DNA of 64,000 nt from a phage: the sequence record PZ242158.1; one strand, written 5' to 3'. The notes beneath the pieces were generated by a model. It was not told the DNA's origin and did no database searches. It saw only the letters and a program-made list of their open reading frames with translations. Shown in pieces: positions 15,131-28,277 of this stretch. A program made the position numbers and the translations under genes. The stretch's first letter is position 1. Every line of letters starts with the position of its first letter.

Positions 15131-15730
15131 TACTTGAAAATTTCTGGCATATCAAGTATAAGGGGGATTTCTAAAATGGATTTCCTCCTTTTTGATATTT
15201 CACCAGGCCAGATATTTTAAAATTCTTAGAAAATCAGAAAACGGATAGAAAACTAAAATGGATTTTTCAGGGTAGACACGATGAGCTGAGCCACTCATCC
15301 TATCGTTTGCGTCATATTCCGGGCTACCATTCCAGATTTTCCGCGTATGCTCACACCCTTCTACCAGAACTTTCCCACTCGCCCTTGGCCTTTTATGGCA
15401 ATAATCCAGCCACTATCTTGAAGTTGCGGTACAGCTCTCCAAGTACTCGATCTGTTTTTCGTTTCAAAGATTGAATTTTCTGAAAATTTTTCTCGATAAA
15501 TTTCTCAGTACTCGATCTGTTTTTCGTTTTCTGAATCGGATTTTCTGGAAATCGTTCCAGCTCTCGACCTGAAATTTTTGGGGACGAAATCGATTTTTCG
15601 TTTTCAGAAATGGATTTTTAAAATTTCTATATGGGAATATTTTATGGGATACTGTTTTATAGGAAATTGTTACGGAGGGTAATTAGCATGCTAATTAAAT
15701 TTATTAAATGCGAGGAGTTCTCATTTAGAA

Positions 15731-15807
15731 TTTTGAATGATAATCATTCTCGTTTGCAGAATAACGGGCAGGCCCGGTGATTGTCTCCCGGCCCCTGTTG
15801 CCCCGGC
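15731..15807 (+). repeat. conserved non-coding element, copy A (AATGATAAT...CCGGTGATTGTCTCCC)
   Basis: Shares extended similarity with copy B at 15861..15945 and an inverted copy at 24901..24948. Confidence 0.5.
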
Positions 15808-15860: not shown

Positions 15861-15945
15861 TTTTAAATGATAATGATAACCGTTCTCATTTTATGCAGCG
15901 CCCATCCCCGGTGGTTGTCTCCCCCGTCACCGGTGCCTGCCGTCC
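15861..15945 (+). repeat. conserved non-coding element, copy B
   Basis: AATGATAATGATAAC...CCGGTGGTTGTCTCCCCCGTCACCGGTGCCTGCCGT; followed by ACCTGGCGGGGCC boxes near 15966 and 16032. Confidence 0.5.
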
Positions 15946-16406
15946 TTTCGATAGGCATATTGTGCCACCTGGCGGGGCCGCTGTCAACACTTCTTCAAAA
16001 ATTTTTTCTAACATAATGCACCAACCGCTGCAACCTGGCGGGGCCAGCCTGGCAGGACCTGACTGACCAGGTAGGAGAGAGTGAAAACTTGCAAACCTGG
16101 TAGGCCTATGCTACAGGGCAGGTAACAATTGAAGAGGAGGTACAAAAATGAAAAGTAATATAATCCCCTGGAAAATGTAGCGATCAACGCCGCTGAAGTT
16201 ATCACCCTGGTTGAAAAGGCTATGGCGGGAGCGTTGGAACATAAAGAAGAGTACGAAAAATGATGGTTAACCTGGCAGGGGCGGCGGCTGGAGAATTCTT
16301 CCCAAAAAATAATTCTAACTAATGGTTGACAGCTCGGAGAGTTCTGTTATTCTTATCCTCGCAAGGTGAACAACACCACACTAATTAACAGAGAGGATAA
16401 AAAATC

Positions 16407-16604
16407 ATGAACGCCTACGGAATTAAAGTACGTCGCAACACTCACCAGGCCGTCACCGATCAAATGGTTTGCCAGGTGGACGTAACCATCAACAACGGGC
16501 AAGGCCTTTATAAATTCCGTCGCGGTCAGAGCTATACCCGGCAACAGCTTAATCGTTGCGCCCTGACAAAAGGCCAGATCAACCACTGGTTTAATAAAAA
16601 ATAA
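16407..16604 (+). CDS. hypothetical protein
   Basis: AGAGGA RBS; no domain. Confidence 0.55.
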   Translation: MNAYGIKVRRNTHQAVTDQMVCQVDVTINNGQGLYKFRRGQSYTRQQLNRCALTKGQINHWFNKK

Positions 16605-16607
16605 GTA

Positions 16608-16636
16608 TTGACATATAGTCTGACACCAAATACACT
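16608..16636 (+). promoter_or_regulatory. sigma70-like promoter
   Basis: TTGACA, 17 bp, TACACT. Confidence 0.45.
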
Positions 16637-16668
16637 AAAAGCACAAAAGACACTAAGAGGATAAAATC

Positions 16669-17067
16669 ATGAAAACCACTACCTTTAATTTTGATAATGC
16701 GGACTTTTCTTTTTCTGATGTCAAGAACTGCCGCCGTGATCGTGGATTTTACAAGGCTTATAATCTGGTGGGCCTGGACGATGACAATAATTTGCACGAA
16801 GTAGCTGAGATCCGGTATTATGCCGCCGCCAGTGGTAACACTCACTACTGCGTGTTTTGGATTCACGACAACAAGAACAATAAGTACGGTTATACTGGCG
16901 GCAAGGCGAGCGGTCACGGTTACGATAAAGCTAACGCAGCACTTGAGAGCGCATTAAATGCTATGGGGATCACTGCCGACGGCTGGATCTACGAAGAAGA
17001 GTTTTTGTCGGCACTTGCTGACCACCTGGGCTATAAAAAGCACATTGTGACATGCGCCCACGAATAA
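16669..17067 (+). CDS. hypothetical protein
   Basis: AAGAGGA RBS; no domain. Confidence 0.6.
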   Translation: MKTTTFNFDNADFSFSDVKNCRRDRGFYKAYNLVGLDDDNNLHEVAEIRYYAAASGNTHYCVFWIHDNKNNKYGYTGGKASGHGYDKANAALESALNAMGITADGWIYEEEFLSALADHLGYKKHIVTCAHE

Positions 17068-17073
17068 AAATCA

Positions 17074-17101
17074 TTGACACGCTGCAAAATTTAAGTAAAC
17101 T
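17074..17101 (+). promoter_or_regulatory. sigma70-like promoter followed by 5'-UTR hairpin
   Basis: TTGACA, 16 bp, TAAACT; then GGCGGGAATGTTTCCCGCC stem-loop before the RBS. Confidence 0.5.
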
Positions 17102-17149
17102 AGACACAAAAGGCGGGAATGTTTCCCGCCAACACAAAGGAAAAAGATC

Positions 17150-17554
17150 ATGAATAAGAACGTACGCCGCATCATGAATGAACTGGCAAACGATGAAAAA
17201 ATTATTGACATGCATTTGATCAACATTTGCCGCCGTTGTGTAACATATAACAACCGCGCCGCAAAAGCGCGTGAGATGAACGCAAAAGGCACCTTAAAGC
17301 CATTCCAGGTGGTGGTAAAGGCCATTAAAGATGTAACTAATACGGCAAACCAGGTACAGGGGAGCACCAACGAGAGTACCAATATTGATCCGGCTTACAT
17401 CATGAAACGGATCCGGACCTGCAAGAACAAAGAGCAAGTGTATAATGTCATAGACTGGTTGGATTCTATGGGCGATGTGGTGTACAATAGATTCTCTGCA
17501 GCTATTGAGATCCAGCTTGACAGGTTAGACGGTAAAGTACTTAAAACTTACTAA
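17150..17554 (+). CDS. hypothetical protein
   Basis: AAAGGAAAAA RBS; no domain. Confidence 0.6.
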   Translation: MNKNVRRIMNELANDEKIIDMHLINICRRCVTYNNRAAKAREMNAKGTLKPFQVVVKAIKDVTNTANQVQGSTNESTNIDPAYIMKRIRTCKNKEQVYNVIDWLDSMGDVVYNRFSAAIEIQLDRLDGKVLKTY

Positions 17555-17555
17555 A

Positions 17556-17600
17556 TTTATTTTTAGATGGCCTTGACTCCAGGGCCATCAATAAAGTAAA
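17556..17600 (+). repeat. 44-bp conserved intergenic element, copy 1
   Basis: TTATTTTTAGATGGCCTTGACTCCAGGGCCATCAATAAAGTAAA right after a stop codon; 7-bp inverted repeat GATGGCC/GGCCATC. Confidence 0.6.
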
Positions 17601-17634
17601 TTAATCTCAGCTAAGCGAAAAAGGGGGCTTTAAG

Positions 17635-17754
17635 ATGAGCACTACACGCCAATACACAAAGGTAACTATTATCGCCTGCGTTGTCGGTTACATCCTGGCG
17701 CAAATGTTAATGAGCAGCGCTAACAGTTTTGCAAAATTTTTCTTAAATTTTTAA
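17635..17754 (+). CDS. small hydrophobic peptide (39 aa)
   Basis: AAGGGGG RBS; MSTTRQYTKVTIIACVVGYILAQMLM...; below the ORF-track size cutoff. Confidence 0.4.
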   Translation: MSTTRQYTKVTIIACVVGYILAQMLMSSANSFAKFFLNF

Positions 17755-17782
17755 TTGACAAGCTAACTTAGATTGATATACT
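17755..17782 (+). promoter_or_regulatory. sigma70-like promoter followed by 5'-UTR hairpin
   Basis: TTGACA, 16 bp, TATACT; then CGGGAAAACTTCCC stem-loop. Confidence 0.55.
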
Positions 17783-17833
17783 TAAACACGTAAACGGGAA
17801 AACTTCCCAGAGCACACAAAAGGAGAAAACACC

Positions 17834-18175
17834 ATGACTACTATGACCGCCGCAGAAAAAGCTATTCAGATCGCCGCACTGAAAAAACAGATCGCAGACC
17901 TTGAGAACAAGATCGATAACTTTGAAATCGACGAGGACAAGTACGACGAAAACTATGATGAATGGTTAGACGAGATCTACGGCGAAATTATGATCGGAAA
18001 CATTTCTTTTCTTCCGTCGCGTATCCTCAAGGAGCTAGATCCTATCGCTTACCGCTGCGGATTTAGCGACTACATCGACAGCCTGGATATTGAGGACGAT
18101 GAAGAATACCAGGAATTACAGACAGAGTTAGAAGAAGCAAAAGAAGAGCTTGCAGAACTGGAAGAAAACGAGTAA
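17834..18175 (+). CDS. acidic coiled-coil protein
   Basis: AAGGAGAAAA RBS; Asp/Glu-rich C-terminus. Confidence 0.6.
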   Translation: MTTMTAAEKAIQIAALKKQIADLENKIDNFEIDEDKYDENYDEWLDEIYGEIMIGNISFLPSRILKELDPIAYRCGFSDYIDSLDIEDDEEYQELQTELEEAKEELAELEENE

Positions 18176-18177
18176 GA

Positions 18178-18221
18178 TTATTTTTAGATGGCCTTGACTC
18201 CAGGGCCATCAATAAAGTAAA
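18178..18221 (+). repeat. 44-bp conserved intergenic element, copy 2
   Basis: Identical to copy 1, again directly after a stop codon. Confidence 0.6.
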
Positions 18222-18264
18222 CTTTATACTGTTAACACTGAACTAATGCATAGGAGTTAAAACC

Positions 18265-18510
18265 ATGGCAGCACTAATCACCAAATATTATGCCCCTACC
18301 AACACCAAAAGCGCCCGTATCATGGTAAAAGGCTTCGGACGTAAAAAGGTGTACACCTGGGATTATGCCTTAGACACGGAAGACAACTACACCAACGCGA
18401 TGACCGATTTTATTAATGATCTGAACACGCGGATCTTGACAAATTATAAAATTACCGATATTGCCTATATAGGGGAAGGCGGGATCTGTTTTGTCGGTAT
18501 CGTCAAATAA
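18265..18510 (+). CDS. hypothetical protein
   Basis: TAGGAG RBS; no domain. Confidence 0.6.
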   Translation: MAALITKYYAPTNTKSARIMVKGFGRKKVYTWDYALDTEDNYTNAMTDFINDLNTRILTNYKITDIAYIGEGGICFVGIVK

Positions 18511-18585
18511 GCTGTTTTTTCGGTGGTCCTGGTAGCAGGGCCATCTATAAAGATAGTTTATCAATACAATGAAAGGAGAAAGTAC

Positions 18586-18939
18586 ATGATCAGCGGGGCA
18601 AGTTTTATTATTGGCGCTATTGCTACGGCTTTAATTGTAAACAAGATCCAATCTAAAAACGAAAAAGATAGCAACGCCCTTACAGAATACCCGTTTTGGG
18701 TATTCAACGACAATGAAGACTATATTATCAAGTACAAGAATGAGAAGGGCGACCAGGTAACACCGCGACCGATCCCGGCTTACAAGATGCAAGAAACACT
18801 ATACCGCCTAAAGGCTGGAGGCGCAAAAATCGTAGACTTTTGGGGATACGATCACACAGATCAGGAAGTTATAAAGCGCCGTATCCGGGCTATTCAGGCC
18901 AATATTGAAGTTAGCAAGGGGGGAATATATGAAGATTAA
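18586..18939 (+). CDS. membrane-anchored protein
   Basis: Internal Met after AAGGAGAAAG RBS; N-terminal hydrophobic helix. Confidence 0.55.
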   Translation: MISGASFIIGAIATALIVNKIQSKNEKDSNALTEYPFWVFNDNEDYIIKYKNEKGDQVTPRPIPAYKMQETLYRLKAGGAKIVDFWGYDHTDQEVIKRRIRAIQANIEVSKGGIYED

Positions 18940-19126
18940 TTTTGAGAAGATTGTAAAGCGATCTCATGCTTCCGAAGAGCTGCCGGAACGCCGCCAGCGC
19001 AACAATAAACTGAATAAGCCAAAAAGATTTGGGAAGATCTGGCGAAATCATTATGATCGCAAATTACCGGGCCTGCTTTTGGAACGTGAACGACAGGCGG
19101 AACGATACCGCCACAAAGGCAAATAA
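18929..19126 (+). CDS. small basic protein
   Basis: Internal Met; Arg/Lys-rich. Confidence 0.45.
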   Translation: MKINFEKIVKRSHASEELPERRQRNNKLNKPKRFGKIWRNHYDRKLPGLLLERERQAERYRHKGK

Positions 19127-19134
19127 CAACCAAC

Positions 19135-19163
19135 GCCCCGCCATTGTGCGGGGCTTTTTATTT
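19135..19163 (+). terminator. rho-independent terminator
   Basis: GCCCCGC-CATTGT-GCGGGGC stem-loop followed by TTTTTATTT. Confidence 0.7.
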
Positions 19164-19307
19164 CTATCCTACGAATAGCGCCCCCGGTTGGCCCTGTAAG
19201 CGCCAAAAAGGCCCCACCTATGCAATCGCCCCCCTTTAACCTGAAAACATCGCTTAGGGCCGTTTTATGGCGTTAAAAATATCATTGACAGTGATTTTAT
19301 TTAAAGC

Positions 19308-19335
19308 TTGACATCTTAAACAGGTTAGCTATACT
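19308..19335 (+). promoter_or_regulatory. sigma70-like promoter
   Basis: TTGACA, 16 bp, TATACT. Confidence 0.55.
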
Positions 19336-19367
19336 AACCACATCAAAGAGAGAAAGGAGTAAACGCC

Positions 19368-19628
19368 ATGCGTAAATTAAAAAATTTTGATAAAGTTGAT
19401 GTTGTCCTGAATAATTTTTACTACTGCAACAACAAGGCCATTTGGTGGCGTGATAGTTCCACCGATAAAGTTAAAGCTCGCTTTCTCCAAGGGCACTGGC
19501 AAGGCCGTCCAGTGATTAAAATACTGGGGCAACTGGTAGCGTTTAAAAATTGCCGCCGTGTTGATGACGTTGAAGAGATCTTGAACATTTTACGCCACAA
19601 TAATTTAAAAAATAGTGTTGACAAGTAA
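19368..19628 (+). CDS. hypothetical protein
   Basis: AAAGGAG RBS; no domain. Confidence 0.55.
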   Translation: MRKLKNFDKVDVVLNNFYYCNNKAIWWRDSSTDKVKARFLQGHWQGRPVIKILGQLVAFKNCRRVDDVEEILNILRHNNLKNSVDK

Positions 19629-19645
19629 ATCTCGATAAGTATACT
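19618..19645 (+). promoter_or_regulatory. sigma70-like promoter followed by 5'-UTR hairpin
   Basis: TTGACA, 16 bp, TATACT; then GGCGGGAAAACTTCCCGCC stem-loop. Confidence 0.55.
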
Positions 19646-19702
19646 TAAACACACAGGCGGGAAAACTTCCCGCCACTAACAAAGAAAATAGGAGAAAATA
19701 TC

Positions 19703-20326
19703 ATGACCACCGTTAACATTACCACAGGTTACAATTTATCTTTCGACGTGCTGACCGACGAACAAAAAGAAAAAGCTATTGAAATGGTCCGCGAAAGAGA
19801 AGAACACAGCGGGGATAATTTTTTTGCAGAAAGTGTAATTGAACACTATAAAGAATATGTCTTTCCAGAGTACGGCCTTGAAGATACCGAAGTACGTTGG
19901 TCCGGCTTTTGGTGTCAAGGCGATGGCGCGTCAATCAGTGCTGAAAACGTGGATTTAGAAAAATTCTTGCGTAAAGTAAAGGCCCTGACCAAGTTCCGAT
20001 CAATTCGTCACTTGTTCGGCACAATGCACGATGGCGAGTTATCAGCCAGTGTTGAACGTATCCCGTTTAGCCATTATCATCACGAAAACACAATAGGAGG
20101 GTGCATCGATACTAATTGGCTAGACCTGACCACCAAGCAAGAGGACAAAGTTGAAGAGCTGGAAGAGCTGATCACCGAGACGGTACGGGAGCTATCCCGC
20201 AAGGTTTACGTAGACCTGGAGGAGGCCTATCTTGAACAGTTTACTACCGAAAACCTGATCGGCCTTATTGAAGCCAATGATTGGCGGTTTGATGTGGATG
20301 AATATGGGGAGATGAGTTTTTCATAA
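19703..20326 (+). CDS. hypothetical protein
   Basis: TAGGAGAAAA RBS; 207 aa; no confident domain. Confidence 0.6.
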   Translation: MTTVNITTGYNLSFDVLTDEQKEKAIEMVREREEHSGDNFFAESVIEHYKEYVFPEYGLEDTEVRWSGFWCQGDGASISAENVDLEKFLRKVKALTKFRSIRHLFGTMHDGELSASVERIPFSHYHHENTIGGCIDTNWLDLTTKQEDKVEELEELITETVRELSRKVYVDLEEAYLEQFTTENLIGLIEANDWRFDVDEYGEMSFS

Positions 20327-20416
20327 ATAAAGTGTTGCAATAATCTAAAAACCTGCTATATTAAAAACTCAAGGGGCGAGATGACTTGCCCCCCACAAAA
20401 CAAAGAGGAAAACATC

Positions 20417-20797
20417 ATGAAAAACACTACTAAAGCTATTGACACCGTTATGTTTAACCTGGTTACATTCCGTGAAGATATGAAAGATCTTCCACGTGAA
20501 ACAGTGTGCGACCATATCGAAAACTATCGCAAACTAATCAAAGAGTTGCCTTTAAAACGTGACCAGTACGCGGCTAACGCTATGCTTAACGCCATGATCA
20601 AAAAGATGATCCAGTGTGATTTAACTCTGGCCTATGATTATGCAGGCGGTCGTTTTGCAGTATACAATCAGCCCGTGCCCGGTATGAGCACCACCGAAGA
20701 ATTGCACGCGTTAAATCTGAAACAAGATGTATGGGATAACATGCCCCGCGTGGTGGTGTGGGCAGAAAGCGGAAAGATTTACGGCGATAATTTTTAA
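20417..20797 (+). CDS. hypothetical protein
   Basis: Internal Met after AAGAGGAAAACATC (track ORF begins 20381). Confidence 0.55.
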   Translation: MKNTTKAIDTVMFNLVTFREDMKDLPRETVCDHIENYRKLIKELPLKRDQYAANAMLNAMIKKMIQCDLTLAYDYAGGRFAVYNQPVPGMSTTEELHALNLKQDVWDNMPRVVVWAESGKIYGDNF

Positions 20798-20861
20798 TCA
20801 GGTAACAGGCGGCATATTTGCCGCCTTATTGTTAAACAGAACTGCAAAAGAGGTACATAGA

Positions 20862-21233
20862 ATGGAATTTATTATTTTGGCTGTAGTAGTTGCCTTGTTC
20901 AACGCCTGGATCGCTGGCAAGATGGGTAGATCCGCTTTTTTATGGTTTATTATATCTATTTTCCTGGGGGTGGTTGCAACTATTGTACTTGTTATCCTTG
21001 CAATTGTTGACAAGGGGAATAATAGAAAGGGTAAAGTATTTTCAGACCTGTACGACGCTCAAACATTTGTCAACGCCTACTACAGCGATCTTCCAGTCTC
21101 CCTACGTTGCAGCCTTGCACAACAGGTTTTCGATGAAGCTAAAACCAGAGATCACGCCCATGAGATTTGTTTAACTGAGGCGGATCGCCTATTTGAGAGG
21201 AATAGAAAATATGTGGACCAGCCGTTTAAATAA
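20862..21233 (+). CDS. membrane protein
   Basis: Internal Met after AAGAGG; two hydrophobic helices. Confidence 0.5.
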   Translation: MEFIILAVVVALFNAWIAGKMGRSAFLWFIISIFLGVVATIVLVILAIVDKGNNRKGKVFSDLYDAQTFVNAYYSDLPVSLRCSLAQQVFDEAKTRDHAHEICLTEADRLFERNRKYVDQPFK

Positions 21234-21432
21234 TGCCACGTTAATTAACCCCTTTAGTGAAGATTTGAAGCCAGCCGCCTGGCGGGATGGATTCAATAAC
21301 GAAAGCTTTATTTTCAGGCCTGATCTTAAGGAATTTTATAACAATGGATCGAACAACGACAGAGATAATTTTTCTTGTAATGTGCGTGGTGATAATACTC
21401 CTGGGAGCCATTGCAAACCACGTCACTGCTAA
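21211..21432 (+). CDS. hypothetical protein
   Basis: Met after AGAGGAATAGAAAAT; overlaps the upstream gene end; uncertain. Confidence 0.3.
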   Translation: MWTSRLNNATLINPFSEDLKPAAWRDGFNNESFIFRPDLKEFYNNGSNNDRDNFSCNVRGDNTPGSHCKPRHC

Positions 21433-21452
21433 CAGGAGGAAAGGGGGAGACG

Positions 21453-21572
21453 ATGACACCCAAGGATAAGCCCCGCACCGATAAGGCGCGCCGTGTTATG
21501 GTATGGCTTGAGATCATCGCCCTTGAAATATTGTTAGGCGTAGGGATGTATTTTATCGCTGTAAGTAATTGA
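21453..21572 (+). CDS. small hydrophobic peptide (39 aa)
   Basis: AAAGGGGGAGA RBS; MTPKDKPRTDKARRVMVWLEIIALEILLGVGMYFIAVSN; followed by terminator. Confidence 0.4.
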   Translation: MTPKDKPRTDKARRVMVWLEIIALEILLGVGMYFIAVSN

Positions 21573-21575
21573 TAA

Positions 21576-21615
21576 CGGCCCCGATCCCTGGGGCCTAACT
21601 TTTCAAATTTTTTTT
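21576..21615 (+). terminator. rho-independent terminator
   Basis: GGCCCC-GATCCCT-GGGGCC stem-loop followed by T-rich tract. Confidence 0.55.
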
Positions 21616-21713
21616 CTCCCTGAGTGTTGCAATCCGATCCAGAATATGGATAATAACAATCAACGGGGAGACACTCCCCACCGCATAGACAAAGTTCCAA
21701 AAGGAGAAACAAA

Positions 21714-21914
21714 ATGAGCAACAATATCCGCGTTATTAACTTCAAAAAAGAAGAAAAAATTGCCGTGCTGATTGACGGTCAAGAAATCTTTAAAGGTGAT
21801 TATGAAGATCATCAAACGGCGATTAGTATCACTCGCGTGATTGGTTACCATAATTTTTACCCTCAAGGCGCTGAGGCAGCAGTAAAACTAATTAAAGAGA
21901 TTGTAGGCCTGTAA
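21714..21914 (+). CDS. hypothetical protein
   Basis: AAAAGGAGAAACAAA RBS. Confidence 0.55.
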   Translation: MSNNIRVINFKKEEKIAVLIDGQEIFKGDYEDHQTAISITRVIGYHNFYPQGAEAAVKLIKEIVGL

Positions 21915-21916
21915 AA

Positions 21917-21961
21917 TTTATTTTTAGATGGCCTTGACTCCAGGGCCATCAATAAAGTAAA
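21917..21961 (+). repeat. 44-bp conserved intergenic element, copy 3
   Basis: Identical to copies at 17556 and 18178; directly after a stop codon. Confidence 0.6.
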
Positions 21962-22005
21962 TTTAAACCCTGTTAAAATAATCAGTGCAAAAAGGAGTAA
22001 TGATC

Positions 22006-22305
22006 ATGTTTATCCAGGCTAATAATCTTTATTTCTTTGATGGTCAGATCGTAGACGGCGTGGAGGTGGAAATCACCGGGTGCCCTGGCGGTCAGGTTAT
22101 GACTTTTCGGAATAATGCCTTTGATGATTCTCATATCGTTATGAGAATGGAAGTTAGTAAGCTGGATGACAAGAAAACACTCATTGATTATTCCGTGAAA
22201 GATCATCCAGACTACCACATGATCTATGGTGATTTGTGCATTGTTGACCGTGACAAGGTGGGCGGCATTGTGATCGCTATTGTGAACGATGTTTTCTCAA
22301 ACTAA
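22006..22305 (+). CDS. hypothetical protein
   Basis: Internal Met after AAAAGGAG RBS (track ORF begins 21985). Confidence 0.55.
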   Translation: MFIQANNLYFFDGQIVDGVEVEITGCPGGQVMTFRNNAFDDSHIVMRMEVSKLDDKKTLIDYSVKDHPDYHMIYGDLCIVDRDKVGGIVIAIVNDVFSN

Positions 22306-22322
22306 TTTCAGCAGGTGATTTT

Positions 22323-22673
22323 ATGAAAGTAAAACTATATTACCTTAATGAGCTTAACCCCCTTGCCCAGGTCCGCGCCCTGGCTAATACCTTGATTTGT
22401 GAGAAATCTGTATATTGTGTTGAGCTTAACTCCATGCGTGAACGTCTCAAAGGTGGTTACTTTGACATCCATGCTGCAATCAACGGCCTGAATATGGAAT
22501 TTATCCGCTTACGTAACAGCCGCCAGAATCTGGCAAGAATGGAACAAGATCCGGCCCACCTTCGTAAGCTGGTTATTGAAAATCATCTAATGTTTAATGC
22601 CGATGGTGATTATTACCATTTTCACCGTAAACGCTGGTACCGTAGCGGCAATATAGGAAAGAATGCAAAATAA
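22323..22673 (+). CDS. hypothetical protein
   Basis: ORF followed by terminator; no domain. Confidence 0.55.
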   Translation: MKVKLYYLNELNPLAQVRALANTLICEKSVYCVELNSMRERLKGGYFDIHAAINGLNMEFIRLRNSRQNLARMEQDPAHLRKLVIENHLMFNADGDYYHFHRKRWYRSGNIGKNAK

Positions 22674-22708
22674 GGCCCCTGGCAGGGCCTGCAGCGATAT
22701 AATCACAT

Positions 22709-22742
22709 AAAGGCTATGCGGTTGCATAGCCTTTATTATTTT
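22709..22742 (+). terminator. rho-independent terminator
   Basis: AGGCTATGC-GGTT-GCATAGCCT stem-loop followed by TTATTATTTT. Confidence 0.7.
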
Positions 22743-22879
22743 GGCGTTACAGCGGCCCCCAAGGCGCTTAAAAAATTTTTAAAGAAGTACTTGCATCAAG
22801 TCCTACAATATGGATAATAAAGGGTGTCGGGGGGCGGTGAGGCCTCCAATCATTAACCGGATAGATAGGAGTTAAAACC

Positions 22880-23164
22880 ATGGCTATTGTTACCGTTGGC
22901 GATGTAGTAGAAATGGAAGCCAAATACTTAAAAGCTGGTATGCATATCATACGGAATGATCAAGAATTGTTATTAACCATGGTTGAATATAATCCCGGTC
23001 AGGATTATCCAAGCATTGACTACTTTTTCCAGTATGTTGATGAAGAATTAAAAGAGGATGAGGCTTATCAGGGTGAATTTTGTAATTTCTTTTGCCCTGA
23101 TGAGGTTGTAAAAGTTATCTATCAACCTGGCGTACCTTTCCCGCTGCACGCTATCAACAAATAA
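22880..23164 (+). CDS. hypothetical protein
   Basis: TAGGAG RBS; followed by ACCTGGCGGGGCC box and GGGGCC-GAAAA-GGCCCC hairpin. Confidence 0.55.
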   Translation: MAIVTVGDVVEMEAKYLKAGMHIIRNDQELLLTMVEYNPGQDYPSIDYFFQYVDEELKEDEAYQGEFCNFFCPDEVVKVIYQPGVPFPLHAINK

Positions 23165-23219
23165 ACCTGGCGGGGCCGAAAAGGCCCCCAATTATGAAAA
23201 TAAAGAGAGGCAAATCATC

Positions 23220-23453
23220 ATGATGGAACAAATTAAACGCGCCGAGGCTATTAATGGCAACGTGATCTATTTTGTCAGCAAAAACGAAAAAGGCGTACCC
23301 TATGCGGCGGTAATAGTACAGCCTGACGGCGATTATTGGTGTACTGTGTACGGCGCTTATTCTTTTGGGCGTCCAGTGCATGATAAAATTTTGAAAGTAG
23401 CGAACCCTACCGGGAAAAATATCACAGCAGAAAAATTTTTTGAAAATAGTTGA
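23220..23453 (+). CDS. hypothetical protein
   Basis: AGAGAGG RBS. Confidence 0.55.
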   Translation: MMEQIKRAEAINGNVIYFVSKNEKGVPYAAVIVQPDGDYWCTVYGAYSFGRPVHDKILKVANPTGKNITAEKFFENS

Positions 23454-23476
23454 CATGACCATATAAGACTGTAGTA
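23449..23476 (+). promoter_or_regulatory. sigma70-like promoter
   Basis: TTGACA, 16 bp, TAGTAT; then GGGGC-AA-GCCCC hairpin. Confidence 0.5.
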
Positions 23477-23524
23477 TATAAATCAAAGGGGCAAGCCCCA
23501 CCAACCACAAAGAGGATAAAAATC

Positions 23525-23704
23525 ATGGCTATTATTGCAAAGACTGAGATCGTAGGCTTGGATTCTATTCTCCTCGCATATGAGGAAGCTATAGAAATGT
23601 ATGTGGTTTCCTATGGTGAGTATATCCGTGAATATAAATCTATTGATCTGGCTTTTGAATGTTATATTCGCCAGGTTAATAAAGCGTACGATGATTATCG
23701 TTAA
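23525..23704 (+). CDS. small protein (59 aa)
   Basis: AAAGAGGATAAAAATC RBS; below track cutoff. Confidence 0.45.
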   Translation: MAIIAKTEIVGLDSILLAYEEAIEMYVVSYGEYIREYKSIDLAFECYIRQVNKAYDDYR

Positions 23705-23794
23705 AATAGTTTGAAAACAAACAACCATCTTACAAAGCATAATACATAAGGCGGTGGAATGGTCCGCCACCTGGAACAAGAAGAGGAAAACAAA

Positions 23795-23899
23795 ATGAAA
23801 CAGAAATTAATTGATGCGGTGATCCTGGTTATTGCCCTGGGTATTGGCCTGATTGCAACCATGGCTAATGTGATCTTGTCTTCCAACGGTATCGGGTGA
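23795..23899 (+). CDS. small hydrophobic peptide (34 aa)
   Basis: AAGAGGAAAACAAA RBS; MKQKLIDAVILVIALGIGLIATMANVILSS. Confidence 0.4.
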   Translation: MKQKLIDAVILVIALGIGLIATMANVILSSNGIG

Positions 23900-23908
23900 G
23901 GTTGGCAA

Positions 23909-24124
23909 ATGATCACTAACAAAACAGGCAAAACGGAATTTTTACGCAACTTACAGATCGGCAAGCCTGAGATCTGGTATTGCACTAAAACACCACGTGA
24001 CGAAATGAAAGACTTCACCGCCACGCTGCAACGGGTAAAGATATCCATCACGCAGAAAAAGGCCTTGATAGTGGTGGAAGGTGAGATCCCTCAAACCGTT
24101 GTTATAGTTGAGCGTACAGCATAG
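23909..24124 (+). CDS. hypothetical protein
   Basis: ORF directly after upstream small gene. Confidence 0.5.
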   Translation: MITNKTGKTEFLRNLQIGKPEIWYCTKTPRDEMKDFTATLQRVKISITQKKALIVVEGEIPQTVVIVERTA

Positions 24125-24215
24125 TTTAATTTATACCGATACCCGAAAATTAACCAACAAAGCATAAACAGGCGGTTACCGCCGCCTTAAACGTAGCAGA
24201 AAGAGGATAGACACA

Positions 24216-24500
24216 ATGAAAAAGATGATCGCAGTGGTTGCCCTGGTTGTTGGACTTAATGCGCCTGTAATGGCTAAAGAGCTGGCAAAAGAGGTTGATC
24301 TAACGGATATCCATGCCGTCAATCAAATCGGGGTTACTTATCGCTTATGCCTTGCCGCTAAAACTTTTAATGACGGCACAACAGAGTACTACGGATTCGA
24401 GGGTATCCGGTGCGGTGAGCTTGCTCGCGACCTTAAGGAAGATCCAGACCTGGAAGATCTGCCCATCACCGTAAACGGTAAAGCTTACGTAAACCGTTAA
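24216..24500 (+). CDS. secreted or periplasmic protein
   Basis: AAAGAGGATAGACACA RBS; signal-peptide-like MKKMIAVVALVVGLNAPVMA. Confidence 0.55.
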   Translation: MKKMIAVVALVVGLNAPVMAKELAKEVDLTDIHAVNQIGVTYRLCLAAKTFNDGTTEYYGFEGIRCGELARDLKEDPDLEDLPITVNGKAYVNR

Positions 24501-24502
24501 CC

Positions 24503-24637
24503 ATGAGAAAGATAATCATCACCTTGGGGATTGTGGCGGGATCGCTGGCGCTCTTTCTCCTTATGGTTAGGTATGTGCTGATCGGTATTGTCCTGGTAGT
24601 CAGTGATCTATTGGAAACGGTTGGCACCTTGTTTTAA
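24503..24637 (+). CDS. small hydrophobic peptide (44 aa)
   Basis: Start 2 nt after upstream stop; hydrophobic throughout. Confidence 0.4.
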   Translation: MRKIIITLGIVAGSLALFLLMVRYVLIGIVLVVSDLLETVGTLF

Positions 24638-24649
24638 AGAGCGGTAAAA

Positions 24650-24841
24650 ATGAATATCGAACAAGTTAGAAAGGTATTGGCGGTACTGCGTTATCATAAT
24701 CATAGAAAGGTCATAGACGATCCTGATTATGTCGATTCAAGCCTGGAAGGGGATACACTACAAGCCATAAGTAATATGCAAGAATTGCTAAAGCGCATGA
24801 CAGAGAAAAACCGACCGGACTACATAGGCGAAAAAATATAA
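24650..24841 (+). CDS. hypothetical protein
   Basis: ORF followed by terminator. Confidence 0.5.
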   Translation: MNIEQVRKVLAVLRYHNHRKVIDDPDYVDSSLEGDTLQAISNMQELLKRMTEKNRPDYIGEKI

Positions 24842-24857
24842 TCCTTATAAACTACAA

Positions 24858-24887
24858 AACAGGGCTTGCAATGGTCCTGTTTTTTTG
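24858..24887 (+). terminator. rho-independent terminator
   Basis: AACAGG...CCTGTT stem followed by TTTTTTT. Confidence 0.55.
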
Positions 24888-24900
24888 TTATACTTGTTTC

Positions 24901-24948
24901 ACGGCAGGCACCTGGCGACGGGGGGAGACAATCACCGGGTGTGCCTGC
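24901..24948 (-). repeat. inverted copy of the CCGGTGATTGTCTCCC element
   Basis: Reverse complement closely matches copy B core at ~15905-15945. Confidence 0.5.
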
Positions 24949-24970
24949 TATATAAAAACTATAAAAACCG

Positions 24971-24999
24971 TTGACATCTGCCAGGTGCTGGGGTAGCAT
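24971..24999 (+). promoter_or_regulatory. sigma70-like promoter
   Basis: TTGACA, 17 bp, TAGCAT. Confidence 0.5.
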
Positions 25000-25054
25000 T
25001 TATCTCGAAGGGGGCAAAAGCGCCCACACAACAACCGGAAGAGAGGAAAACGCC

Positions 25055-25327
25055 ATGTTAAGCTGGATTAACCAAGAAGTTGAATCACGTTTTAATGCTA
25101 TTTGGGATCTCATCGAAAAAGAAGACGGCACATCAAGCCCCTACCTCAACAATTTGGAATTCCATTTTGTGGAAGCGATGAACGCAGAACATGATCACGA
25201 AGGTGGCGCGGATGAGTTCGCTAAAGGTTATGGCTTTAACAATGCCAACGAAATGATCGAGGCGGTAGTACTCCAGGCTGAGGAAGATTATCAATTAAAA
25301 ACGCTTGAATTCTGCCGCCGCAAGTAA
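25055..25327 (+). CDS. hypothetical protein
   Basis: Internal Met after AGAGAGGAAAACGCC (track ORF begins 24971). Confidence 0.5.
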   Translation: MLSWINQEVESRFNAIWDLIEKEDGTSSPYLNNLEFHFVEAMNAEHDHEGGADEFAKGYGFNNANEMIEAVVLQAEEDYQLKTLEFCRRK

Positions 25328-25389
25328 TAAGATAATGACACGGGCCAAAAGGCCCACTAAACAAAAACCACATAAAGAGGAAAAACATC

Positions 25390-25653
25390 ATGAAACGCCT
25401 TGATCAGCTCAAATTAGTTCAATATATGGCTTATCGTGTTCTTGAAGTCCAGAAAGGTAGCAAAAAAGAGGTTTGCGAGAAAGCTTATAAGATCTTCACT
25501 CGCAAAAAAGATGACTGGATGCTACGCCAGACCAAAAAGGCTGACATCTTGGGGTACCTGGAAGAAGAGATCCGACTTGAAGAGCAAGAAGAGATCCGCC
25601 GTAGTGAGGCAGATTATCAGGCAGCTTGGGAAAACTGGATGAGCAACAAATAA
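25390..25653 (+). CDS. hypothetical protein
   Basis: AAAGAGGAAAAACATC RBS. Confidence 0.55.
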   Translation: MKRLDQLKLVQYMAYRVLEVQKGSKKEVCEKAYKIFTRKKDDWMLRQTKKADILGYLEEEIRLEEQEEIRRSEADYQAAWENWMSNK

Positions 25654-25718
25654 TACAACAAGGTGCACGGTCAGGGGCTTAAAGCCCCTTGATCACATAA
25701 AAATTATGCTATCCCTGG

Positions 25719-25747
25719 TTGACAGGGATCGGCAGTTTTGCTATATT
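25719..25747 (+). promoter_or_regulatory. sigma70-like promoter
   Basis: TTGACA, 17 bp, TATATT. Confidence 0.55.
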
Positions 25748-25796
25748 CTTTTTTGAAGGGAAGTTGTAAGAAAATTAACTAAGAGGTAAAAACACC

Positions 25797-26216
25797 ATGA
25801 ACATTAAATCTAATAATCCGGCATATAGCTTTGATAACGCTTTTTGTCACGGTCCGGCGGCGAAAGGATTCGAAATCGATGGTAAACTAATTATTGTCAA
25901 TGTTGACGGGGAAGAGGTTGCAGTATATCCGGTGGCAGACGTAAAAAGCCGTTTACAATGCCGCATGGATGTTACCGCCTATCAGCTTGATCCGGTCCGC
26001 ATAGTTGCCCTGGTCCTGGAAGAAGAAATTAAAGCCATGCACCATAGCAACAGGTTTATTGGTGACGCTCAGGATAATATGAAGGTGTGCCGCCATAAAG
26101 TTAATGAAGTGCTTAAAGAGTACGGCTATAAAGATCTTATGATCAAACGTGATGAAAAATTCCGGTACCGTAACGACCTGGCAAATCGGATTTTTGAAAT
26201 ATACGAATCATTATAA
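25797..26216 (+). CDS. hypothetical protein
   Basis: AAGAGGTAAAAACACC RBS; last + strand gene before the non-coding switch. Confidence 0.55.
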   Translation: MNIKSNNPAYSFDNAFCHGPAAKGFEIDGKLIIVNVDGEEVAVYPVADVKSRLQCRMDVTAYQLDPVRIVALVLEEEIKAMHHSNRFIGDAQDNMKVCRHKVNEVLKEYGYKDLMIKRDEKFRYRNDLANRIFEIYESL

Positions 26217-27045: not shown

Positions 27046-27284
27046 TGCTTTTATATTATGTCATATATTATTAACTTGTTAATTGTTAGTCAGTCAAATC
27101 AACAGCGTTATCATTTCAGTCTTTATTGTTGTTGATCGTTATTGTTATCATGCAAACGAATGGCATGGCTTATCATCTCTGTATAAACAGTTTATGCGTG
27201 AACAGTGAGGCATGCAATAGTAACAATTGTTATTGTGTCATCATGTCAAGGGTAAAGTGTCATAGTATGTCAGACATGTTTTTC

Positions 27285-28277
27285 CCCTCTTTGTCAAGTG
27301 CTGCATGAAAAAATTTACAAGCTGGTATGGTAGCATTTTTGCGGCCTTGTTTACATTCAGGAGTGTATGTATAATCCTTGTTGTGTGGGCGTTTATACGT
27401 CTGGACGGTCAGAAGTCTGCAGGTTAATATCTAATCTATTGGCTGCTAACTATATCCCACACAAATGATAAGAAATATAATTGTTATATGCGTAAACTGT
27501 AACTCATGTTATCAATCCCTGTATGTATCGCCAGTGGTGCGCATAATGGGTATTATGTTAAATTGCCCGTAATGATAACAGTTCTCACAATGATAGGTAT
27601 TCTCATTCATCCACACAAAATAGGTTGCAAATGTTGTGCCACTGTGTGAACGGCCTGGCCTATTAATTTCTCTCACTGCCTCGATATTTGAGAATTGTTA
27701 TAAGAATGAGAAGTATCCATGTTTATATTACATCTACTTGGTTCAGAACCAAAATGCGCGAAAGCGTTTCACGATAACTAGCGACCACGGTCTGTTCCCT
27801 GGCGGCCATACGGCTTCTACTGAACGCAGCAGAGGGCGATAATCCCCTCTTTGTCAAGTGCTGCATGAAAAAATTTACAAGCTGGTATGGTAGCATTTTT
27901 GCGGCCTTGTTTACATTCAGGAGTGTATGTATAATCCTTGTTGTGTGGGCGTTTATACGTCTGGACGGTCAGAAGTCTGCAGGTTAATATCTAATCTATT
28001 GGCTGCTAACTATATCCCACACAAATGATAAGAAATATAATTGTTATATGCGTAAACTGTAACTCATGTTATCAATCCCTGTATGTATCGCCAGTGGTGC
28101 GCATAATGGGTATTATGTTAAATTGCCCGTAATGATAACAGTTCTCACAATGATAGGTATTCTCATTCATCCACACAAAATAGGTTGCAAATGTTGTGCC
28201 ACTGTGTGAACGGCCTGGCCTATTAATTTCTCTCACTGCCTCGATATTTGAGAATTGTTATAAGAATGAGAAGTATT
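27285..28277. repeat. tandem direct repeat: two near-identical ~430-bp copies (about 27285-27717 and 27845-28277) separated by ~128 bp
   Basis: Long stretches read identically at a ~560-bp offset; each copy contains promoter-like TTGTTT-17-TATAAT. Confidence 0.7.

Follow-up and report, generated by a model that had tools for sequence, protein, structure and literature searches.

The closest described counterparts of the elements considered here are the PeSL (promoter-early stem-loop) cassettes of the T4-type phages RB49/phi1, PST, and nt-1 (Arbiol et al. 2010, PMC2839356; Comeau et al. 2014, PMC4122927). A PeSL combines an AT-rich tract, a strong σ70 promoter, a GGGG...CCCC stem-loop, a Shine-Dalgarno (SD) sequence, and an ATG, and it lies in a hyperplastic region before an ORFan; modular shuffling of these units and the formation of mini-circles have also been described (PMC2839356, PMC4122927). 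Five positions of the stem-loop are known among PeSLs, for the most part between or over the -35 and -10 elements, and the stem-loops have been read as terminators, one of them having been tested and found to be a strong terminator (PMC2839356). In E. coli, the stabilising effect of 5' secondary structure, known from the ompA, papA, and engineered bla leaders, is explained by the requirement of both RppH and RNase E for a single-stranded 5' end (review PMC3997798). In this work, we consider a set of repeated cassettes at 16.3-26 kb of a 64,000-nucleotide (nt) stretch of phage DNA (sequence record PZ242158.1; the whole stretch is hereafter called the window), in which a GC-rich hairpin stands behind a σ70-like promoter and ahead of an A-rich ribosome binding site (RBS).

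On sequence identity, the window is assigned to an rV5-like E. coli myovirus of the genus Vequintavirus: over the 6-kb core of the cassette region, it shares 99.4% identity with Escherichia phage rV5_ev156 and 90-98% with more than 100 further rV5-like phages. GC skew separates + strand genes, from 1 to ~28 kb, from - strand genes, at 28-64 kb. Between 16.4 and 26.2 kb (9.9 kb), 28 + strand genes of 34-207 codons each are called, every one with an SD-like motif 3-15 nt (mostly 6-10) before its ATG. The ten largest products belong only to PHROG families of unknown function, and a comparison of these ten with Pfam gave nothing above threshold. In the Certrevirus literature, a comparable accessory block of small open reading frames is called a "likely early gene region" (PMC7344957), and the region here is best described as a hyperplastic, presumably early, block of small ORFans.

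A hairpin at a fixed distance from the promoter

Within 16300-25800, sites that match at least 10 of the 12 σ70 consensus positions number ten on the + strand and none on the - strand, as against 1.75 +/- 1.4 (maximum 6) in 200 dinucleotide shuffles. The -35 hexamer TTGACA by itself is found 16 times on the + strand, compared with 3 on the - strand and 3.1 in shuffles. The promoters have the form TTGACA-16/17-TAnnnT with AT-rich tracts upstream, such as AAAAATAGTG or TTAAATTTTTAA. Most of them were predicted independently in Table S4 of the rV5 genome paper (P164, P168, P174, P185, P186, P192, P194, P195, and P195A), which does not mention a hairpin behind the promoters that it lists. The initial annotation had recognised these near-consensus promoters as well as an A-rich RBS, and both are borne out. 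For the 13 hairpin-preceded genes, the RBS consensus is A.AAAA.GG.AAAACA.C-ATG, and the 30 nt before the ATG (-30 to -1) are 49% A and 11% T. The elements that it had quoted are also present: GGCGGGAAAACTTCCCGCC at 19656-19674, GGCGGGAATGTTTCCCGCC at 17112-17130, GGGGCAAGCCCC at 23488-23499, GGGCCAAAAGGCCC at 25342-25355, and ACAAAGAGGAAAACATCATG ending at the ATG at 20417.

The full three-part module of promoter, GC hairpin, and A-rich RBS, here termed class A, precedes 8 of the 28 genes (Table 1). Its order is constant: an AT-rich tract, the -35 element, a spacer of 16-17 nt, the -10 element, 10-11 nt, a GC hairpin with a stem of 4-8 base pairs (bp) and a loop of 3-6 nt, and then an A/C-rich leader of 19-35 nt that carries the SD sequence and leads to the ATG. 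Counted from the last T of the -10 hexamer, the hairpin starts after 10 nt in six cassettes and after 11 nt in one. In the eighth, whose hairpin at 17796 is eroded, the distance is 13 nt; this cassette is a paralogue of the one at 19618 (repeat family D6, 78% identity), the two hairpins are in register, and the 19618 copy shows that the outer pairs lost at 17796 began at offset 10. Since the spacing from the -10 element is constant and the distance from hairpin to ATG varies between 19 and 35 nt, the class A hairpin is anchored to the promoter, and neither to the RBS nor to the upstream stop codon. In all eight cassettes, the promoter sits between the upstream stop codon and the hairpin.

These results confirm that the observation is real and sharper than it was first stated, the spacing of 10-11 nt being, along with PeSL-like modules at insertion and deletion junctions, a feature beyond the earlier description. 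The cassette had been presented as general to many genes of the region, with hairpins that do not follow the preceding stop. The first point holds for the 8 genes just described, and is limited by four promoters that lack a hairpin and five hairpins that lack a good promoter; the second holds for the eight class A hairpins and fails for those five, which lie close behind a stop codon and include the one at 25342 that had been offered as an example.

The usual start point of host RNA polymerase is 7-8 nt past the -10 hexamer, with a preference for a purine that follows a pyrimidine. A pyrimidine-purine dinucleotide occupies positions 7-8 after the -10 element in 6 of the 8 cassettes, and most cassettes of two other phages, phi92 (Stephanstirmvirinae) and LTH01 (another vequintavirine lineage), have C-A or C-G there (for example, ...CACATA followed by GGGCGG). 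With the hairpin at an offset of 10-11 nt and a normal σ70 start at the 7th or 8th nt, an overhang of 3-4 nt is predicted between the 5' end of the mRNA and the class A hairpin.

Table 1. Cassettes, hairpins, repeats, and terminators of the region, in window coordinates (the first coordinate of each class A cassette is the start of its -35 element; z is relative to shuffled sequences)
Feature	Position	Strand	Elements and context	Fold	rV5 entry
Class A cassette 1	17074..17152	+	-35 TTGACA 17074-17079; -10 TAAACT 17096-17101; ATG 17150		P194
Cassette 1 hairpin	17112-17130	+	followed by A-rich RBS	8 bp; -14.6 kcal/mol; z -4.26	
Class A cassette 2	17755..17836	+	-35 17755; -10 TATACT 17777-17782; ATG 17834		P192
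Cassette 2 eroded hairpin, GGGAAAACTTCCC	17796-17808	+		z -1.0	
Class A cassette 3	19618..19705	+	-10 TATACT 19640-19645; hairpin 19656-19674; ATG 19703	z -4.52	P185
Class A cassette 4	20335..20419	+	-35 TTGCAA 20335; -10 TATATT 20357-20362; ATG 20417		
Cassette 4 hairpin	20373-20392	+		one G.U pair; z -3.42	
Class A cassette 5	21627..21716	+	-35 TTGCAA 21627; -10 GATAAT 21649-21654; hairpin 21665-21679; ATG 21714	z -3.12	
Class A cassette 6	22791..22882	+	weak -35 TTGCAT 22791-22796; -10 GATAAT 22813-22818; ATG 22880		
Cassette 6 hairpin	22830-22847	+		G.U pair; z 0.07, singly not significant	
Class A cassette 7	23450..23527	+	-35 23450; -10 TAGTAT 23472-23477; ATG 23525		P174
Cassette 7 hairpin	23488-23499	+	5 bp, GGGGC..GCCCC, in most relatives	4 bp; z -0.99	
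Class A cassette 8	24971..25057	+	-35 24971; -10 TAGCAT 24994-24999; ATG 25055		P168
Cassette 8 hairpin	25010-25025	+	clean 5 bp in relatives	G.G mismatch; z -1.64	
Promoter without hairpin	16326..16353	+	TTGACA-16-TATTCT		P195A
Promoter without hairpin	16608-16636	+			P195
Promoter without hairpin	19308-19335	+			P186
Promoter without hairpin	25719-25747	+			P164
Hairpin, promoter absent	20807..20826	+	between stop 20797 and RBS of gene 20862; tail TATTGTT	z -2.2	t184 (terminator)
Hairpin GGGGCCgaaaaGGCCCC	23172..23188	+	8 nt past stop 23164, 31 nt before ATG 23220; no promoter, no U-tract		
Hairpin before gene 23795	23750..23771	+	decayed class A cassette, TTGAAA-16-CAAAGC	z -2.72	
Hairpin before gene 24216	24170..24187	+	upstream ACAAAGCATAA in common with 23750 copy; no functional -10	z -1.9	
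Hairpin GGGCCaaaaGGCCC before gene 25390	25342..25355	+	weak promoter TTGAAT-17-TAAGAT (25305-25333), hairpin 8 nt later	z -3.76	
Class B repeat copy 1	17553..17602	+	50 nt; hairpin GATGGCCTTGACTCCAGGGCCATC around TTGACT -35-like box, then 18 nt, TAAATT	10-bp hairpin	
Class B repeat copy 2	18174..18223	+	family D2		
Class B repeat, diverged copy	18509..18558	+	68% identity; TTGACT box gone	hairpin retained	
Class B repeat copy 4	21914..21963	+	family D2		
Canonical intrinsic terminator	19135..19154	+	followed by TTTTTATTT	7 GC pairs	
Further intrinsic terminators	22707-22736; 24856-24883	+	T-tracts		
Terminator-like element	21577-21595	+			

When taken singly and compared with shuffled sequences, the leaders of 4 of the 8 cassettes fold significantly better than expected (z -3.1 to -4.5). 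Further evidence comes from the placement of hairpins over a larger set. Strict criteria (a perfect stem of at least 5 bp with at least 4 GC pairs, and a promoter of at least 10/12) caught only 2 cassettes of the window, and were hence relaxed, with the census limited to promoter-plus-RBS units, of which 86 were taken from the window (both gene blocks), phi92, and LTH01. Among these, 28 hairpins start at offsets 10-12 after the -10 element, where ~1.2 are expected from a background density of 0.0035-0.005 hairpin starts per nt; elsewhere in offsets 0-55, there are only scattered single starts. A chance origin was rejected on this peak and on the promoter counts in shuffles.

The two arms of each hairpin also belong together. 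When the arms of 31 cassettes from four phages were re-paired at random in 2000 permutations, the native mean of -13.15 kcal/mol compared with -8.99 +/- 0.50 kcal/mol for the re-paired arms, and none of the permutations reached the native value. The arms are thus matched within each cassette, beyond a mere G-rich stretch followed by a C-rich one. With the start set at the 7th nt, the mean pairing probability is 0.8-0.9 at +5 to +10 and again at ~+18 to +20, and falls to 0.1-0.2 over the RBS region, where shuffles give 0.3-0.4. A profile of this kind is absent from the four promoters that lack a hairpin.

Most promoters at 1-16 kb and 28-64 kb have no hairpin, so that the module is found mainly in the ORFan block. 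Outside the region, a few - strand promoters (35195, 30941, and 27082) do have a hairpin 7-10 nt after the -10 element, for example tgttttcaaaGAGGGTTTGGTTCCCTC.

Which strand folds, and what follows the hairpin

Wobble pairs distinguish the strands of a hairpin, because a G.U pair on one strand is an A.C mismatch on the other. Among 49 distinct hairpin sequences, not all independent of one another, 12 G.U pairs and 1 A.C mismatch are counted in the stems on the sense strand (binomial p=0.003), and in stability the + strand fold exceeds the - strand fold in 19 hairpins and falls below it in 5. Together with the matched arms and the persistence of the hairpins in orthologues, this bias fits hairpins that act as sense-strand RNA, with pairing kept by selection. 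The bias points away from an antisense transcript and from duplex DNA recognised by a protein; antisense-strand terminators were rejected on the same ground.

If the inverted repeats did act as duplex DNA, they might be operators through which a phage or host DNA-binding protein shuts off the early promoters, or targets of a recombination protein. The palindromes have their centre at ~+13, where operators are classically found, the GGCGGGAA..TTCCCGCC family occurs repeatedly, and the authors of the PeSL work speculated that a recombination protein binds GGGG..CCCC. A DNA-binding protein would nonetheless have to accept at least 6 unrelated stem sequences, loops, and hence half-site spacings, that range from 3 to 6 nt, and whole-loop inversions, and in duplex DNA a 12-to-1 excess of G.U over A.C would be meaningless. 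We consider a role as duplex DNA highly improbable. Hairpin promoters of the N4 type were rejected as well, σ70 boxes being present with the hairpin downstream of them.

The sequence that follows the hairpins bears on termination. A U-tract is found behind none of the 8 class A hairpins, whose tails, such as AACACAAAGG, ACTAACAAAG, and CCACAAAACA, resemble ACACAAAGG; further hairpin tails are ACCGCATAGA, AATCATTAAC, ACCAACCACA, and ACACAACAAC, and the 8-nt tails of all promoter-proximal hairpins collected are 48% A and 17% T. This composition argues against the class A hairpins being canonical terminators. Furthermore, all eight lie downstream of their own predicted start, so that an efficient terminator at this place would abort the transcripts of its own cassette. 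Such is the difficulty for the original PeSL model, under which the hairpins would be terminators or attenuators that damp read-through from upstream cassettes, leaving each gene mainly on its own promoter. That model has an experiment behind it, since a T4-type PeSL stem-loop placed between a promoter and lacZ cut expression about as much as strong terminators do (PMC2839356), a result that also counts against a stabilising role. Moreover, genome annotations enter these hairpins as terminators (Terminator_16 and Terminator_18 in phage Alma, t184 in rV5), a simple scan marks several of them as terminator-like on the - strand, and the five promoter-less hairpins sit right behind stop codons. 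The true terminators of the region (19135, 22707, and 24856), however, have T-runs where the tails of the hairpins have none, and a terminator gives no reason for a fixed distance of 10-11 nt from the -10 element across four phage genera. On balance, termination or attenuation is an improbable function for the class A hairpins.

The five RBS-proximal hairpins outside class A (20807, 23172, 23750, 24170, and 25342) lie close behind the preceding stop, and their promoter is absent, weak, or decayed. At the site of the 23750 hairpin, the related phage phita32 has an intact class A module, TTGACA-16-TAAAGT with 10 nt and then the hairpin. Comparison of this module with the decayed -10 element of the window (CAAAGC) indicates that some promoter-less hairpins, at least, are worn-out cassettes. 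The hairpin at 20807 may be a weak terminator.

Conservation, exchange, and a proposed role in mRNA decay

Every hairpin is retained in 11 rV5-like genomes, although in sequence it changes more quickly than the promoter and RBS on either side. The changes include a loop inversion (AATGTTT to AAACATT), stems that are longer or shorter, a stem pair that is G.U, A-U, or G-C depending on the phage, and the outright replacement of one hairpin by another family.

The stronger comparative signal comes from other genera rather than from the rV5-like orthologues. A search with the 207-residue protein gave only 2 close loci, and annotated phage records were used for comparison instead, starting from unselected lists of strong promoters. 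In phi92, ~13 of 21 such promoters are followed by a GC hairpin at 10-12 nt, an A-rich leader, and an ATG; the same layout is found for ~10 of 16 promoters in LTH01 and for 2 of 5 in PVP-SE1 (Seunavirus). The stability of the hairpins in phi92 and LTH01 is -11 to -18 kcal/mol.

A scan of IMG/VR with the exact pattern TTGACA-N16/17-TAnnnT-N10-GGCGGGAA, which covers one hairpin family only, gave 36 stretches; in roughly half of them, GGCGGG has a complementary arm, followed by an RBS and an ATG. When the offset was left open from 0 to 30 nt, GGCGGGAA peaked, among the 120 matches listed, at offsets 11-13 (16, 12, and 9 cases, as against ~2-3 elsewhere), and stable hairpins among these matches were concentrated at the same offsets. 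Among the matches listed, many come from GC-rich contigs of actinophages akin to Mycobacterium phage Imvubu and Tsukamurella phage TPA2, some of which carry up to 4 copies within 7 kb (loci L026, L028, L043, L054, L067, L097, L131, L150, and L166). In these phages, which are unrelated to rV5, the unit reads TTGACA-16/17-TAnnnT, 10-11 nt, GGCGGGAAnnnCCCGCC, and GGGAAG/GAGGAG..ATG. These findings hint that the layout is convergent and widespread.

The same layout in unrelated actinophages points to a generic physical role of the hairpin rather than to recognition by a factor. A factor might be an N-like antiterminator, a phage endonuclease that times the shut-off of early mRNA, or a translational regulator with the hairpin RNA as its site, and the promoter-proximal placement does recall the lambda nut sites; several loops are A-rich (GAAAA, AAAA), and the region encodes many proteins of unknown function. 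Neither the sequence nor the length of the loops is conserved, no boxA-like motif is shared, and the hairpins have no Rfam match (a search of 15.0-28.5 kb at E<=1 gave only a match at chance level). Recognition by such a factor is accordingly very unlikely. Two particular sites of this kind were rejected: nut/boxB sites, as the 3-6 nt loops have no shared sequence and no conserved linear motif stands beside the hairpin, and RNase III sites of the T7 early type, which need a duplex of ~20 bp or more. Processing sites, which the initial annotation had named as one possibility, are thus unlikely with stems of only 4-8 bp. Its other suggestion, of 5' stabilisers rather than terminators, is favoured by the position of the hairpins inside the predicted transcript, the missing U-tract, and the sense-strand wobble bias, and does not extend to the five hairpins behind stop codons.

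The cassettes also mark the places where close relatives differ in gene content. In comparisons in silico, cassettes repeatedly contain the ends of insertions and deletions that distinguish the window from its relatives. In YP-6, the gene at 19703-20326 is deleted, and the junction (19620/20325) lies in AGTGTTG, which is common to the -35 regions of cassettes 19618 and 20335. In magaca, an extra gene of 219 nt is inserted just past the 25342 hairpin (junction 25356-25383), and in phita32, Alma, and slur12, an extra 300-540 nt start within the 23750 hairpin (junction 23754), in phita32 as additional cassette-plus-gene units. Because the modules are repeated and similar, they would serve as short homology patches at which whole units of gene and cassette are gained or lost. 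In the window, two TTGACA boxes (19287 and 19308) stand 21 nt apart at 19287-19335, upstream of gene 19368, and look like the recombination scar of a deleted cassette-plus-gene unit. An IMG/VR relative has a 540-nt insertion exactly at this double box.

It is quite unlikely that the cassettes are only recombination substrates, with the hairpin a passenger or a by-product of palindrome-prone replication that has no function as RNA. The junctions inside cassettes, the swaps of hairpins between paralogous cassettes (h23749 and c19618), and the scar-like tandem boxes all speak for recombination; the fixed offset from the -10 element, the sense-strand wobble bias, the unstructured flank at the RBS, and the folding kept despite sequence change would be left unexplained by it. 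Recombination at the cassettes is compatible with a function of the hairpin in RNA rather than an alternative to it.

The best-supported reading, which rests on predicted transcript starts, is that each hairpin is a stem-loop at the 5' terminus of an early mRNA, where it impedes 5'-end-dependent decay by RppH and RNase E and insulates the RBS; we give this reading a probability of roughly 0.55. Host RNA polymerase would read the strong σ70 promoter of each self-contained module, and the transcript would begin ~7-8 nt after the -10 element, as R-N-N directly before the hairpin. The GC hairpin would then fold after ~3 unpaired nt, at RNA positions ~+4 to +22, ahead of an A/C-rich, T-poor, and unstructured leader of 19-35 nt with the SD sequence and the ATG. 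The stem-loop would deny a single-stranded end to RppH and to the 5'-end sensor of RNase E, allowing the early mRNA to live longer, and as a self-folding unit it would keep the RBS free of any upstream sequence, also in read-through transcripts from upstream promoters. Early phage messages might in this way outlast host messages by means of a hidden 5' end and an unpaired RBS. RNase E is a major agent of the decay of T4 early mRNA (PMC3014915), and T4 Srd stimulates RNase E against host mRNA (PMC4980113). The gp11 protein of rV5, whose gene lies outside this window, is predicted to be a probable Srd homologue (PMC3606486).

Several points weigh against a stabilising role. The promoters and transcript starts are consensus predictions, and a search of the vequintavirus literature found no mapped transcript starts, timing, half-lives, or usable transcriptomes, so that the activity of the promoters, the precise start of the transcripts, their early timing, and stabilisation itself are inferred from the sequence. 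E. coli RppH needs at least 2 unpaired 5' nt and prefers at least 3, and it might still act on an overhang of ~3 nt. The four good promoters without a hairpin and the five hairpins without a good promoter indicate that the hairpin is not necessary for expression and is not restricted to primary 5' ends. Four of the eight leaders have weak stems of 4-5 bp that are not individually above shuffles (z 0.07 to -1.6), which makes the evidence collective. Covariation among orthologues is modest, the changes being mostly one-sided or through a wobble pair, with double compensatory changes rare, and in 4 variants, each from a single genome, a pair is broken. When 27 paralogous cassettes were aligned with MAFFT and submitted to RNAalifold, no consensus structure emerged, as arms of different length were aligned out of register. 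Finally, the constant spacing may in part reflect common descent of duplicated cassettes (family D6).

If the stabiliser reading is true, it offers a simple physical account of how dozens of tiny, often exchanged genes are expressed at once, amid mRNA destruction, by a phage that depends wholly on host RNA polymerase. PeSL-type cassettes would be reread, in at least one large phage group, as "promoter plus 5' stabiliser" instead of "promoter plus terminator", and the terminator labels given by genome annotators would misdraw transcription units. The cassettes, of ~80 nt, would be ready-made, compact, strong expression modules for E. coli, and since they mark the junctions of gene gain and loss, they are of help in outlining the accessory (anti-host or anti-defence) gene pool of a phage group with uses in therapy and biocontrol. 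More tentatively, a hairpin ~3 nt from the 5' end of early mRNA could be a general, convergently evolved phage strategy, shared by rV5-, phi92-, and PVP-SE1-like coliphages and Salmonella phages and by actinophages, in which transcripts escape 5'-end-dependent decay while an Srd-like factor turns RNase E on host mRNA. We think this broader proposal unlikely; if true, decay resistance would be written into a portable gene cassette.

Neighbouring elements and comparison with known systems

A second repeated element of the region, class B (Table 1), is present in 3 exact copies, where none is expected, and in one diverged copy, and all 4 copies lie directly behind stop codons. Its hairpin contains a T.G wobble and has complementary, AT-rich flanking arms; the extended fold reaches -25.8 kcal/mol (z -3.48). 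Among the terminators and the terminator-like element of Table 1, the rV5 listing includes t177 and t181.

A structured element of ~45 nt, GGCAGGCACC..GACGGGGG(G)AGACAA(T/C)CACCGGG..GCCTGC, is found in three copies, one on the + strand (24903-24950) and two on the - strand (~15889-15935 and ~15761-15800). The + strand copy folds at -24 kcal/mol (z -2.6) and lies 8 nt after a TTGCAA-17-TATACT promoter at 24866, which overlaps the terminator at 24856-24883; the - strand copy at ~15889-15935 has a - strand promoter upstream of it, with its -35 element at 15987. None of the three copies has an Rfam match. These elements may be small RNA genes or regulatory sites.

Repeats also flank the gene block. 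At 15433-15618, three iteron-like repeats of ~47-51 nt, spaced by 65-74 nt (AGTACTCGATCTGTTTTTCGTTT...), sit in a non-coding stretch of ~1.2 kb (15.15-16.3 kb) immediately upstream of the cassette region. On the other side, a perfect direct repeat of 300 nt (27283-27582 and 27843-28142, the copies 560 nt apart) contains duplicated mini-ORFs at 27367 and 27927 and lies in a low-GC (37%), non-coding zone at 26.3-28.5 kb, where the + and - strand gene blocks converge. As phi92 has a 343-bp terminal repeat directly behind its equivalent early region, this zone may be a genome-end or terminal-repeat area, or an origin.

With regard to what was known, the rV5 promoters had been described, as had cassettes of promoter plus stem-loop as a kind. 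What appears to be new is the fixed placement of the hairpin in the 5' untranslated region, conserved across Vequintavirinae and phi92-like phages; a literature search that did not include two of the genome papers found no description of the promoter-hairpin architecture for rV5, phi92, or PVP-SE1.

The likeness to PeSL is extensive. Both kinds of cassette are intergenic, belong to hyperplastic regions, and stand directly upstream of small ORFans; both have strong σ70-like -35 and -10 elements with an AT-rich tract upstream, a stable stem-loop of a G-run and a C-run within the motif, and an SD sequence and start codon at its 3' end. Both recur many times in a genome and are found where close relatives differ by inserted, deleted, or replaced genes, the crossovers falling inside the motif. 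The class B repeat, moreover, matches the PeSL subclass whose stem-loop overlaps the -35 element. The differences are of two kinds: the lineages here are Vequintavirinae and Stephanstirmvirinae instead of T4-type phages, and the main class keeps its stem-loop at one position after the -10 element, inside the predicted transcript and without a U-tract. On this comparison, we class the cassettes as a PeSL-like family from a phage group new to the kind; their architecture is a variant one, which suggests a different job for the hairpin.

Intrinsic terminators share with the class A hairpins a GC-rich stem of 5-8 bp, and annotation pipelines label the hairpins accordingly; unlike terminators, the hairpins lack a U-tract on their 3' side and are separated from the upstream gene by a promoter. 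The RNase III sites of T7 and the nut sites of lambda are also hairpins in phage early transcripts, upstream of cistrons or near promoters. The former, however, need roughly two helical turns, whereas the stems here are 4-8 bp, and the latter have conserved boxA and boxB loops, whereas the loops here vary freely. Finally, the 5' stabilisers of E. coli, the ompA and papA leaders (Emory, Bouvet and Belasco 1992, reviewed in PMC3997798), and the 5' stem-loop of the T7 late (phi10) transcripts resemble the predicted leaders in having a short, stable hairpin a few nt from the 5' end and an accessible RBS. The ompA leader is longer and has two hairpins, and these cases are single, experimentally proven leaders, whereas the module described here has a predicted 5' end and is repeated before many genes in several phage genera.

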